Source: Escherichia coli
GTDB taxonomy: Bacteria > Pseudomonadota > Gammaproteobacteria > Enterobacterales > Enterobacteriaceae
Reading direction: 5' to 3' (one strand)
Assembly: GCF_003334335.1 (NCBI RefSeq)
Contig: NZ_QOWQ01000022.1
Length of the DNA stretch: 64,000 nucleotides
Of the stretch, positions 1,023-7,403 are shown piece after piece. Position 1 is the first letter of the stretch; every line of letters begins with the position of its first letter. Position numbers and translations under genes: made by a program. The notes under the pieces were generated by a model. The model was not told the origin of the DNA, made no database searches, and was given only the letters and a program-made list of their open reading frames with translations.

Positions 1023-3305
<2,283 letters not shown>

Positions 3306-3359
3306 GTAACACCTACCTTCTTAAGTGGATTTTTTATTTACTGCGTACTTCGACAACCA

Positions 3360-4217
3360 TTAATGGTGGTCGTTTTCACGCAGGTAAATGACCCAGTATG
3401 TCAACCCAACCAACAAACCACCACCGATAATGTTGCCGATCGTAACCGGAATCAGGTTATCAGTGATGAAATTCATCACGGTCAGGTGAGAAAAATTTTC
3501 CGGTGCAGAACCGACTGCGGTCCAAAATTCCGGGGATGCGAAGTCGCGGATTACAATACCCATCGGGATCATAAACATGTTTGCGATACTGTGCTCAAAA
3601 CCGCTGGCAACAAACATCGCGACCGGCAGCACCATAATGAACGCTTTGTCCATCAGGCTGCGGCCAGAATAACTCATCCATACTGCCAGACATACCATCA
3701 GGTTTGCCAGGATACCAAGACAGACGGCCTCAATAAAAGTATGGTGCACTTTGTGGTCGGCGGTTTGTAGGACGTTTAGTCCCCATTGACCATTTGCGGT
3801 CATATACTCGCCGGAAAGCCACATTAAAAGTACAAACAGCAGTGCGCCGACCAGGTTGCCAAAATAGACATTTAGCCAGTTTTTCGCCAACTGACCCCAG
3901 GTGATGCGCCCACTCGCCTTAGCAACAACAATCAACACGGTGGAAGTAAAGAGATCGGCTCCGCAGACAACACAAAGAATCAGCCCCAGAGAGAAGCAAA
4001 TGCCGCCAACCAGTTTTGCCATGCCGAAGGGCATTGTGCCTGTGCCAGTGGTTGCTGTGATATAGAAGACGAATGCGATTGAGATGAAAACACCGGCGGT
4101 AATCGCCAGATAGAAAGTCTTAAGCGGATGTTTCGTTGCTTTATAGACACCCGCCTCTTCGGCCACTTTGGCCATTGCAGCAGGAAGTAAAAGATCAAAA
4201 GGGTTGTCAGCTTTCAC
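3360..4217 (-). CDS. focA: formate channel FocA (FNT family), 285 aa, GTG start
   Basis: ORF 3360..4391(-) trimmed to the GTG (cac at 4215-4217 on + strand) preceding KADNPFDLL; polytopic membrane protein. Confidence 0.88.
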   Translation of the reverse strand: MKADNPFDLLLPAAMAKVAEEAGVYKATKHPLKTFYLAITAGVFISIAFVFYITATTGTGTMPFGMAKLVGGICFSLGLILCVVCGADLFTSTVLIVVAKASGRITWGQLAKNWLNVYFGNLVGALLFVLLMWLSGEYMTANGQWGLNVLQTADHKVHHTFIEAVCLGILANLMVCLAVWMSYSGRSLMDKAFIMVLPVAMFVASGFEHSIANMFMIPMGIVIRDFASPEFWTAVGSAPENFSHLTVMNFITDNLIPVTIGNIIGGGLLVGLTYWVIYLRENDHH

Positions 4218-4276
4218 ACTAACTCTCTCTTTATTAAGTCGGCGACGAGATACTAACAAAGCATTATAGATGAGAA

Positions 4277-4290
4277 ATTGATATAGATCA
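4277..4290 (-). promoter_or_regulatory. FNR-type box TTGAT-N4-ATCAt in the focA-pflB promoter region
   Basis: TTGATATAGATCAT about 60 bp upstream of the focA GTG; 9/10 match to the TTGAT-N4-ATCAA consensus; AT-rich surroundings. Confidence 0.55.
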
Positions 4291-4622
4291 TATCTCGCCT
4301 GGCTTATAGGCCCGTAACTCGCATGGTTTTTATGCAAATACGGAGTAAATATTTGATTATCCAAATAAAAATAAATTTTAAAAATTAACAAATGAGTTGA
4401 ATTTTTTCCGCATCCTCCGCTAAAACAGTTAATTAAAAGGGAGCATCAGGCGAATAAAGTAACAATATCGATCGTATTTATTAAATACAAATTACCGATA
4501 TTTAACCTTATAATTACAATTATTTTATTAATGCAAATATATGTAAAGCGGGGCATTAAAAAAACGCCCCGTAATATAACTCAGACTAATCATTAAGCCT
4601 ACATTGCGTAGGCTATTTGATT

Positions 4623-6383
4623 TTATTTTGCCCAGAATGCTGCTTTGGCGCGCTGCAGCTTTTCGTAGGCCTTCAACAACGACTGATGTGCAGCAAACGC
4701 GTGCAGATCGCTATCTACCGGTTGCAGGCCGTAAAACGCCGCTTCGCCGCTCATTGCCGCACTGGCGGCTTCTACGGCATCTGCGCCGTACATGCGAACA
4801 AACGCATTCAGATATTGCAGCGGCTGGCGATCTTCTTCCTGTGCCAGTAATAACAACGTTTGCAGGCAGCGATAATAGTTGGCGCGTTCCGGACTAAATA
4901 CTGATGAGTTAAACTCCATCGTCCATTCGGTCCAGACCAGAGCCTGTTCCAGATCGCCACCAGCCAGCGCCAGCATGGCTTTTAATTCACCGATACGCAG
5001 GGTGTACCAACCGTTATCCGACCCGGTCGCCAGACCCAACAGCTCACGCACGCGGGTAAAGTCATCAAAACCTTCTTCATCCAGTTGCTCGATGAGGTTC
5101 AGGTAATCTTCTTTTTCCCACTCGCTGCCTGGTAGCGAAAGAATCGTTTCACGTAAATGGCTGCCCATACTGTTATTCGCGAGCCACAGATCTTCAGCCG
5201 GATAAATATCGGACATGCCAGGCACGATAATACGGCAAGCATAAACGCCCAGATGCTCGTAATCGGCAATATAAACTTCTTTATCTTCTTTGTTGAAGAT
5301 AGCCATCAGTGTGGCGAACTCTTCTTCCGTGGTGCCGGAGAAATTCCAGTCCACAAACGGATAATCGGCATCCTGCTTGAACAGGTCCCAGGAGATTAAA
5401 CCGCTGGAATCGATAAAGTGCGTTTCGAGGTTGGTATGTTCAGCGACTTCTTCATCATCGAAGGTTGGCGGAGTAAACACATCCAAATCTTTCAGGCCAC
5501 GACCTTGCAGCAGCTCGGTCACGGTACGTTCCAGTGCTACGCCAAAATCAGGATGCGCACCGAAAGAGGCAAAGCAGGTACCGTTAGCAGGATTGAACAG
5601 TACCACGCAAATCACCGGATACTGGCCGCCAAGCGAACCGTCATAAGCGAAGATTGGGAAACCCTCCGCTTCCAGCGTTTCGATGGCTTCAACTACTGCT
5701 GGGTAACGCGCCAGCACGTCTGCCGGGATCTCTGGCAGGCTGATGCTTTCAGCAATAATGCGGTTTTTCACGTAGCGTTCGAAAACTTCAGACAATCCCT
5801 GAACGCGTGCTTCGTTGCGGGTATTACCTGCGGACATACCGTTGGAGACGTACAGGTTACCAATGATATTCATCGGAATATAAACGGTCTGATTGTCGGA
5901 CTGACGCGTAAACGGCAGGCCGCAAATACCACGATCTTCGTTACCGGATTGTAGGTCAATCAGCATGCTGCCGGTCAGTTCATTCTCCGGATCATAAAAC
6001 GCGCGCAGACGGTCATCGAGCAGCCCTTCTGGCACATCGTCATTTTCGGTCAGTGGGAACCATTTTTCGTTGGGATAATGCACGAACGGACCGTTGGCGA
6101 TGGTTTCGCCCAGCCAGAAGTCCGCAAAAAAGTAGTTGGTTGAGAGACGCTCGAAATATTCACCGAGTGCAGAAGCCAGCGCCGCTTTCTTGGTTGCGCC
6201 TTTACCGTTGGTAAAACACAGTGCGCACTCTTTGTCGCGAATATGTACAGACCAGACGTTAGGCACGGGATTCAGCCAGGAGGCCTCTTCAATCTGAAAG
6301 CCGAGGTCTGAAAGTTTTTGCTGGAAGCGAGCGATGGAATCTTCCAGAGCGGCATCTTTGCCGGGGATAAATGTTTGCGTCAT
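4623..6383 (-). CDS. ycaO: YcaO-domain ATP-dependent enzyme, 586 aa
   Basis: ORF 4623..6416(-) trimmed to MTQTFIPGKD; divergent from ycaP. Confidence 0.9.
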   Translation of the reverse strand: MTQTFIPGKDAALEDSIARFQQKLSDLGFQIEEASWLNPVPNVWSVHIRDKECALCFTNGKGATKKAALASALGEYFERLSTNYFFADFWLGETIANGPFVHYPNEKWFPLTENDDVPEGLLDDRLRAFYDPENELTGSMLIDLQSGNEDRGICGLPFTRQSDNQTVYIPMNIIGNLYVSNGMSAGNTRNEARVQGLSEVFERYVKNRIIAESISLPEIPADVLARYPAVVEAIETLEAEGFPIFAYDGSLGGQYPVICVVLFNPANGTCFASFGAHPDFGVALERTVTELLQGRGLKDLDVFTPPTFDDEEVAEHTNLETHFIDSSGLISWDLFKQDADYPFVDWNFSGTTEEEFATLMAIFNKEDKEVYIADYEHLGVYACRIIVPGMSDIYPAEDLWLANNSMGSHLRETILSLPGSEWEKEDYLNLIEQLDEEGFDDFTRVRELLGLATGSDNGWYTLRIGELKAMLALAGGDLEQALVWTEWTMEFNSSVFSPERANYYRCLQTLLLLAQEEDRQPLQYLNAFVRMYGADAVEAASAAMSGEAAFYGLQPVDSDLHAFAAHQSLLKAYEKLQRAKAAFWAK

Positions 6384-6512
6384 GAAAATCACTTTAGTCG
6401 TACGGAAAGCGCGCAATAATACGGGTTTTATCTCAAAGGCGCTATCACCGCCGCCATGCCGATGAACTGTTGACTATGCTTTTAGCGGATAAACCACGTT
6501 AAGAGCATAAAA

Positions 6513-7205
6513 ATGAAGGCGTTCGATCTCCACCGTATGGCATTTGATAAAGTGCCTTTTGATTTCCTTGGCGAAGTTGCACTACGTAGTCTTTATACCT
6601 TTGTACTGGTCTTTTTGTTCCTCAAAATGACCGGAAGACGCGGTGTGCGGCAGATGTCGCTGTTTGAAGTTTTAATCATTCTGACGCTGGGATCAGCGGC
6701 GGGAGATGTGGCGTTTTATGATGATGTGCCGATGGTCCCGGTACTTATCGTCTTTATTACTCTGGCGTTGTTATACCGCCTGGTAATGTGGTTGATGGCG
6801 CACAGTGAAAAACTGGAAGATCTTCTGGAAGGCAAGCCAGTTGTCATTATTGAAGATGGCGAGCTGGCCTGGTCGAAACTCAATAACTCCAACATGACGG
6901 AATTTGAGTTCTTTATGGAGCTACGATTGCGTGGCGTGGAGCAGCTGGGGCAGGTACGTCTGGCGATTCTCGAAACCAACGGGCAAATCAGTGTCTATTT
7001 CTTTGAAGATGACAAGGTGAAACCGGGTTTACTTATTTTACCCAGTGATTGTACGCAGCGTTACAAAGTGGTGCCGGAGTCGGCGGACTATGCCTGTATT
7101 CGTTGTAGTGAAATCATTCATATGAAAGCGGGGGAAAAACAATTATGTCCGCGCTGTGCAAATCCAGAATGGACGAAGGCAAGTCGGGCAAAACGGGTGA
7201 CCTGA
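6513..7205 (+). CDS. ycaP: DUF421-family inner membrane protein with C-terminal CxxC...CxxC motif
   Basis: ORF 6513..7205(+), 230 aa; hydrophobic N-terminal half; CIRCSE...CPRCANP near C-terminus. Confidence 0.85.
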   Translation: MKAFDLHRMAFDKVPFDFLGEVALRSLYTFVLVFLFLKMTGRRGVRQMSLFEVLIILTLGSAAGDVAFYDDVPMVPVLIVFITLALLYRLVMWLMAHSEKLEDLLEGKPVVIIEDGELAWSKLNNSNMTEFEFFMELRLRGVEQLGQVRLAILETNGQISVYFFEDDKVKPGLLILPSDCTQRYKVVPESADYACIRCSEIIHMKAGEKQLCPRCANPEWTKASRAKRVT

Positions 7206-7403
7206 CAGTAAAAACATCGGCTTTTTGCTAATAATCCGAGAGATTCTTTTGTGTGATGCAAGCCACATTTTTGCCCTCAACGGTTTTACTCATTGCGATG
7301 TGTGTCACTGAATGATAAAACCGATAGCCACAGGAATAATGTATTACCTGTGGTCGCAATCGATTGACCGCGGGTTAATAGCAACGCAACGTGGTGAGGG
7401 GAA

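Follow-up and report, generated by a model that had tools for sequence, protein, structure and literature searches.

The chromosomal ycaO gene of Escherichia coli stands alone and most likely encodes the uL16 thioamide-forming enzyme

The stretch of Escherichia coli DNA analysed here (64,000 nucleotides, hereafter the window) carries, between focA-pflB and ycaP, the gene ycaO, the product of which is a YcaO-domain enzyme without partner genes at its locus that very probably forms the thioamide at Met82 of ribosomal protein uL16. An initial annotation, made from the sequence alone, had placed such an enzyme at 4623-6383, and these coordinates are exactly those of the RefSeq coding sequence, which starts with an ATG at 6383 and ends with a TAA stop codon at 4623-4625. 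The longest mechanical open reading frame (ORF) runs from a TTG at 6416 and comprises 597 aa; the ATG is preferred as the start because it agrees with the 586-residue crystallised protein (PDB 4Q84/4Q85/4Q86), which the window protein matches over its full length (residues 1-586). That protein is E. coli YcaO (EcYcaO, UniProt P75838), the founding member and prototype of the YcaO family, the structure of which was solved in 2014, and there is no detectable difference between its gene and the window ORF. At the DNA level, the region 4200-6700 shows 100% identity with E. coli K-12 MG1655. Of 5426 complete E. coli genomes, 5425 carry the ycaO stretch at a coverage of at least 80%, nearly always in a single copy, and it is therefore a core gene. 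The computed isoelectric point (pI) of the window protein is 4.38, with 92 Asp/Glu versus 42 Lys/Arg residues, in agreement with the published value of 4.4, and all 13 residues that were mutated in the study of Rice et al. (Biochemistry 2026, PMC13063428) occur in it, thus the window protein is the protein described there. In short, the feature is the ordinary chromosomal core gene ycaO with a K-12-type sequence. Some matches came from records filed as plasmids, but a plasmid-borne or mobile ycaO was rejected, as these are chromosomes or chromosome fragments of several hundred kb to Mb, all non-mobilizable. In one strain, KFu015 (NZ_CP147130.1 3026214-3029491), the match to 4200-6700 falls into two pieces spanning 3278 bp versus 2501 bp, with an IS1A element within the region.

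The profile search for PF02624 proposed in the initial annotation was positive (4e-75) and delimits the catalytic domain, and the C-terminal part of the protein matches the YcaO_C profile PF18381 (3.5e-65; Table 1). To judge the conservation of the catalytic residues, the window protein was aligned with 89 representatives (n = 90). S71, E75, E78, N187, E199, E202, R203 and R286 are all present in the window YcaO and are conserved in at least 81 of the 90 sequences. Six of them, E75, E78, E199, E202, R203 and R286, which we take to be the ATP/Mg2+-binding residues of Dunbar et al. 2014, are conserved in 82-87. The protein passes the cut-offs of both the general YcaO model TIGR00702 (574.8 bits, cut-off 75.65) and the NCBIfam equivalog NF040716, "YcaO_for_S12" (917.2 bits, cut-off 700), and its sequence contains no PxPxP motif or Pro-rich C-terminus of the kind typical of cyclodehydratases. 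The tetratricopeptide-repeat (TPR) domain of EcYcaO, of about 150 residues, mediates dimerisation and may help to bind uL16 (PMC13063428). In the same study, a strongly acidic pI, complementary to the basic uL16, served as the criterion for a uL16-type YcaO. The window protein combines this acidity and the NF040716 score with a YcaO_C domain and with the absence of neighbours for an E1-like protein, a RiPP recognition element (RRE; RiPP, ribosomally synthesised and post-translationally modified peptide) or TfuA, and so has the sequence characteristics of the uL16-thioamidating clade.

Downstream of ycaO, on the same strand, follow focA, pflB and pflA, and ycaP lies upstream in divergent orientation; the flanks named in the initial annotation thus agree with the RefSeq annotation and with NCBIfam. 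Beyond ycaP come serC, aroA, ycaL/loiP, cmk and rpsA, and the other ~50 kb of the window is ordinary K-12 chromosome, running from msbA, lpxK and mukFEB via ompF and the ssu operon to pqiAB. Among the annotated genes of the window there is no E1/ThiF-like protein, SagB-type dehydrogenase, TfuA, ThiS-like protein, rimO or rplP, and none of the nine neighbouring proteins matches the E1-like, SagB-type dehydrogenase or TfuA families in NCBIfam. One boundary had to be corrected. The flank beside focA had been taken as 4392-4622, but this limit corresponds to the longest focA ORF (343 aa, TTG at 4391), which is too long for the gene. In the annotation, focA starts with a GTG at 4217, preceded by the conserved ribosome-binding site AAAGAGAGAG (GAGAGAG). 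The boundary was therefore 174 nt off, and the ycaO-focA spacer is 4218-4622 (405 bp, 31% GC). When this spacer and the upstream flank 6384-6512 were searched for ORFs of at least 10 aa with a Shine-Dalgarno motif, nothing was found except an 11-aa TTG ORF with a Shine-Dalgarno-like motif, which was rejected as trivial. The earlier impression that neither flank holds a convincing short ORF with a ribosome-binding site thus holds, and it has been reported that there is no small ORF near E. coli ycaO (PMC13063428). A permissive Rfam scan of 3300-7300 gave no match.

Table 1. Positions of ycaO, its domains, its flanking elements and the neighbouring genes in the window.
Feature	Position	Strand	Description
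ycaO	4623..6383	minus	586 aa + stop; E. coli K-12 b0905; ORF and translation, RefSeq WP_001295344.1
YcaO ATP/Mg2+-binding catalytic domain	5211..6209	minus	residues 59-391; Pfam PF02624
YcaO_C domain, TPR-like, dimerisation	4641..5165	minus	residues 407-581; Pfam PF18381
Two RNA hairpins directly 3' of the ycaO stop codon	4549..4622 (4588-4622 and 4549-4571)	minus	folding
Divergent ycaO/ycaP intergenic region	6384..6512		129 bp; no credible small ORF
12-aa ORF MIYINFSSIMLC	4291..4253	minus	probably focA promoter DNA
focA	3360-4217	minus	285 aa, GTG start; annotation and NCBIfam
pflB	1023-3305	minus	annotation and NCBIfam
pflA	91-831	minus	annotation and NCBIfam
ycaP	6513-7205	plus	DUF421; annotation, no NCBIfam match

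The two hairpins directly behind the ycaO stop codon fold with -30.1 kcal/mol (z = -3.8 compared to shuffled sequences). The second of these has a G+C-rich stem of 9 bp followed by a U-rich tract, and is probably the ycaO terminator. Judged from these sequence features, the hairpins and the long, AT-rich spacer are in line with a ycaO that is transcribed as a separate unit. Its promoter presumably lies in the divergent intergenic region. A scan for consensus promoters and terminators gave no more sites than shuffled sequences; it detected no consensus promoter in this intergenic region, and on the minus strand no site that would belong to ycaO. The ATG of ycaO is preceded by ...ACTAAAGTGATTTTC (6384-6400), in which the Shine-Dalgarno sequence is weak and not clearly recognisable. 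Such a weak site would fit a low translation of the enzyme, and it has been reported that the native YcaO level limits the modification of overexpressed uL16 (PMC13063428).

The function of EcYcaO is known from the literature. The thioamide at uL16 Met82 was seen in a 2.0 Å cryo-electron microscopy map of the ribosome and by mass spectrometry, and YcaO was proposed as the candidate enzyme (Watson et al. 2020, PMC7550191). In a proteome-wide AlphaFold3 screen of 2026, nothing but the uL16 loop was placed in the active site of YcaO, and ribosomes from a ∆ycaO mutant were found to be devoid of the thioamide (PMC13063428). Co-expression resulted in complete thioamidation, and the E202A variant, which marks E202 as functionally important, and other ATP-site variants gave incomplete thioamidation (PMC13063428). 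Purified YcaO fused to maltose-binding protein (MBP-YcaO) thioamidates full-length uL16 only in the presence of ATP, MgCl2 and Na2S (PMC13063428). The enzyme accepts neither GluC fragments nor peptides of 11 or 21 residues, and it binds folded uL16 with a dissociation constant (Kd) of 9.8 nM (PMC13063428). The Klebsiella pneumoniae and Pseudomonas aeruginosa orthologues act likewise on uL16, and deletion of ycaO suppresses the slow growth of a ∆roxA mutant in minimal medium (PMC13063428). The literature thus provides the substrate, the modified site, the dependence on ATP, Mg and sulfide and the binding affinity, and the window itself provides the gene identity, the domain content, the conserved catalytic residues, the acidic pI and the absence of partners. 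Taken together, we consider it highly probable (roughly 0.93) that the window ycaO encodes a stand-alone, ATP-dependent enzyme that forms the thioamide at uL16 Met82. The initial annotation had proposed a housekeeping role rather than natural-product synthesis, which is right but unspecific, as uL16 Met82 was not named. Its finding of a stand-alone ycaO is correct, and was already known for this well-studied gene.

The homodimeric, very acidic enzyme, acting alone, binds folded uL16 (RplP) via a broad, electrostatically complementary surface, and the uL16 loop carrying Arg81-Met82-Gly83 is inserted into the active site. By analogy with other YcaO enzymes, the order of chemical steps may be pictured as follows. 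A sulfide equivalent would attack the backbone carbonyl of Met82, as in the general YcaO mechanism, ATP would phosphorylate the oxygen of the resulting hemiorthoamide, and subsequent elimination of phosphate would yield the thioamide (C=S) beside the peptidyl-transferase centre. No E1-like protein, RRE, dehydrogenase, TfuA or precursor peptide is needed, because the substrate is a conserved protein encoded elsewhere in the genome. Some caveats attach to the assignment of this function to the window gene. Since rplP lies outside the window, the pairing with uL16 rests on the literature for the identical protein, in vitro thioamidation relied on non-physiological sulfide (PMC13063428), the ∆ycaO mutation alone leaves growth normal, with no defect in LB or M9 medium (PMC13063428), and the name now used in databases, S12 accessory factor, implies another role. 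In the sequence itself we saw no evidence against a uL16-thioamidating enzyme. TfuA is absent from E. coli (PMC13063428). Which sulfur donor serves in vivo, what the thioamide does so close to the peptidyl-transferase centre, and how it interacts epistatically with Arg81 hydroxylation are questions that the literature has already raised.

To see whether ycaO keeps company with other genes, 80 Enterobacterales loci were compared, in which the YcaO protein identity was 81-99%. The order serC-(ycaP)-ycaO-focA-pflB-pflA is conserved across these loci. ycaP adjoins ycaO in 45 of the 80, with a spacer of 114-142 bp in 42 of these 45, and elsewhere serC follows directly after the upstream spacer of ycaO, thus the presence of ycaP varies and it does not qualify as a partner. 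Where focA was found (72 loci), the spacer between ycaO and focA measures 318-576 bp in 70. The two exceptions, in Cedecea (L047 9760-16960) and Klebsiella sp. BIGb0407 (L049 9760-16830), carry a cassette of ~7 kb between ycaO and focA. It encodes a LacI-family regulator, a PhnS2/U2/T2-like ABC transporter and an inositol-monophosphatase-family gene, which are unrelated to peptide modification, and it was therefore rejected as a YcaO partner cassette. Neither RiPP partner genes nor a credible precursor ORF were found in any of the 80 loci.

A contig scan and a word-index protein search returned only relatives with at least 81% identity, and more distant ones were obtained from a representative search, which gave 665 clusters at an E-value of 1e-30 or better; among the 92 full-length representatives, 88 proteins are acidic. 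In the gene contexts of six orthologues with 39-67% identity, neither a RiPP- or TfuA-type partner nor a credible precursor ORF was found. The closest, P0121 (67% identity), lies between RNase G and a CmoB-like methyltransferase, and P0122 (53%) between a ClC channel and a YkuD protein. P0123 (54%) is an OsmC-YcaO fusion with unrelated neighbours. In P0129 (L088, 46%), YcaO is followed by FocA, and in P0144 (L089, 42%) by a 108-aa ORF and then PFL. P0172 (L090 4950-6653, 39%), which has a pI of 9.7, was considered as a positive control for a RiPP context on account of this basic pI, but its neighbours, PFK, Ppx, PPK and a glycosyltransferase 9, are housekeeping genes without RiPP genes, and it offered no contrast. 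This protein, which may come from an AT-rich genome, does not fit a simple rule in which acidic means uL16 and non-acidic means RiPP. Together, the window, the 80 Enterobacterales loci and the six distant contexts bear out the earlier statement that ycaO is a singleton without a precursor, dehydrogenase or E1-like partner.

The only recurrent neighbour of YcaO among the distant contexts is focA-pfl, present at 42-46% identity and absent at 53-67%. This adjacency could mean that, besides modifying uL16, YcaO acts on another substrate or plays a part linked to anaerobic formate metabolism. In favour of this are the ycaO-focA-pflB-pflA order in 70 of the 72 Enterobacterales loci with focA and its recurrence at 46% and 42% identity, as well as the same adjacency across Gammaproteobacteria (PMC7550191) and the remark that YcaO enzymes may modify yet other proteins (PMC13063428). 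However, unrelated genes surround the orthologues with 67%, 54% and 53% identity, and in the window ycaO is parted from focA by the two hairpins and the 405-bp AT-rich spacer with its apparent focA promoter elements. Moreover, Watson et al., with reference to Sawers 2005, describe focA-pfl as independently transcribed, the uL16 thioamide is present in aerobically grown cells (PMC7550191), and the AlphaFold3 screen posed only uL16 in the active site (PMC13063428). The synteny was already reported, and judged functionally unrelated, by Watson et al. 2020 (PMC7550191), and we regard a formate-related role as very unlikely.

The database name offers another alternative. Both the RefSeq product name and the name of NF040716 are S12 methylthiotransferase accessory factor, implying that YcaO chiefly helps the radical S-adenosylmethionine enzyme RimO to methylthiolate Asp88 of uS12. 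This agreement between names is joined by results of Strader et al. 2011, who, as far as they are summarised in PMC13063428, co-purified YcaO with tagged uS12 and saw the modification of uS12 fall from 99% to 84% in a ∆ycaO mutant. However, RimO by itself suffices to modify a uS12 peptide in vitro, the modification is entirely missing from a ∆rimO mutant, and the AlphaFold3 interface scores (ipTM) are 0.31 for YcaO-uS12 and 0.16 for YcaO-RimO, versus 0.8 for uL16 (PMC13063428). The reported effect is small and could be indirect, via altered ribosomes, and rimO is not in the window. That helping RimO is the chief function thus seems very improbable, and we treat an S12 role of YcaO as secondary or indirect. 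The product name reflects a weak observation of 2011 and lags behind the demonstrated uL16 function.

Small-ORF clustering over 70-79 Enterobacterales intergenic regions recovered one ORF that required attention, the 12-aa MIYINFSSIMLC; it recurs, as the family MIYI[N/K]FSSIMLC, in 50 of 70 loci. It lies, with an FNR-like box, ~40 nt upstream of the focA GTG and downstream of both ycaO hairpins. Its ATG is part of the conserved motif aTGATctatATCAA (4278-4291), which closely resembles the FNR consensus TTGAT-N4-ATCAA. The ORF also contains a TATAAT hexamer (4263-4268), and it has no Shine-Dalgarno sequence. Because of this overlap, and the missing Shine-Dalgarno sequence, its conservation is better explained by promoter DNA. 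In view of the pfl promoters mapped by Sawers and colleagues, 4253-4291 is presumably a focA promoter, and the ORF is probably regulatory DNA of focA rather than a peptide gene. The initial annotation had named a conserved small precursor-like ORF or a cyclodehydratase partner in the flanks as what would speak against its reading; no cyclodehydratase partner is present, and a conserved small ORF was formally found, but it is most likely non-coding promoter DNA and was rejected as a precursor peptide. That YcaO is a cryptic RiPP maturase with this ORF as its unannotated precursor, to which its Ser and Cys residues, its conserved length and sequence, and its location on the ycaO strand might point, has a negligible chance of being right, given the promoter-like features of the ORF, the score of YcaO far below the SagD-family cut-off (43.7 versus 219) and its missing PxPxP C-terminus, the distant orthologues that retain the enzyme amid different neighbours, and the true substrate already identified experimentally (PMC13063428).

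Finally, uL16-thioamidating EcYcaO can be placed among the other YcaO families. With the azoline-forming cyclodehydratases of thiazole/oxazole-modified microcins (TOMMs; SagD/BalhD/LynD, TIGR03604) it shares the YcaO ATP-binding fold and the amide-activation mechanism, but it fails the TIGR03604 model (43.7 bits, cut-off 219.25) and, unlike these enzymes, has no E1-like/RRE partner, SagB dehydrogenase, precursor peptide or Pro-rich C-terminus. With the OsmC-YcaO fusions (TIGR03549) it shares the YcaO and YcaO_C parts, which in the 729-aa P0123 (L086 6001-8190) have 54% identity to full-length EcYcaO. The window protein reaches 681.9 bits with TIGR03549, below the cut-off of 900, and aligns to profile positions 148-722, since EcYcaO does not have the N-terminal OsmC domain of ~145 residues. 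In P0123, this domain contains two cysteines in the segments SSAMCAAY and MERCTVKR, at positions that we assume to be those of the OsmC/Ohr catalytic pair. From the gene fusion and the gene order one might speculate that the sulfur donor is hinted at by a built-in thiol/persulfide or redox relay of the OsmC domain, and that the focA-pfl adjacency couples thioamidation to an anaerobic, sulfide-rich physiology, but we find this improbable. The methanogen YcaO (methanogenesis marker 1, TIGR03266; MJ1094, PDB 6PE3), which thioamidates a glycine of McrA, resembles EcYcaO only weakly in sequence, the latter failing TIGR03266 (39.1 bits, cut-off 365) and matching PDB 6PE3 with E = 7e-4. TfuA is a frequent partner of the methanogen enzyme, which also acts on short peptides, whereas EcYcaO works without TfuA, needs full-length uL16, and has the extra TPR-like C-terminal domain. 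Their chemistry is nevertheless shared, as both use the same catalytic domain for the ATP-dependent formation of a backbone thioamide on a folded protein rather than on a RiPP.

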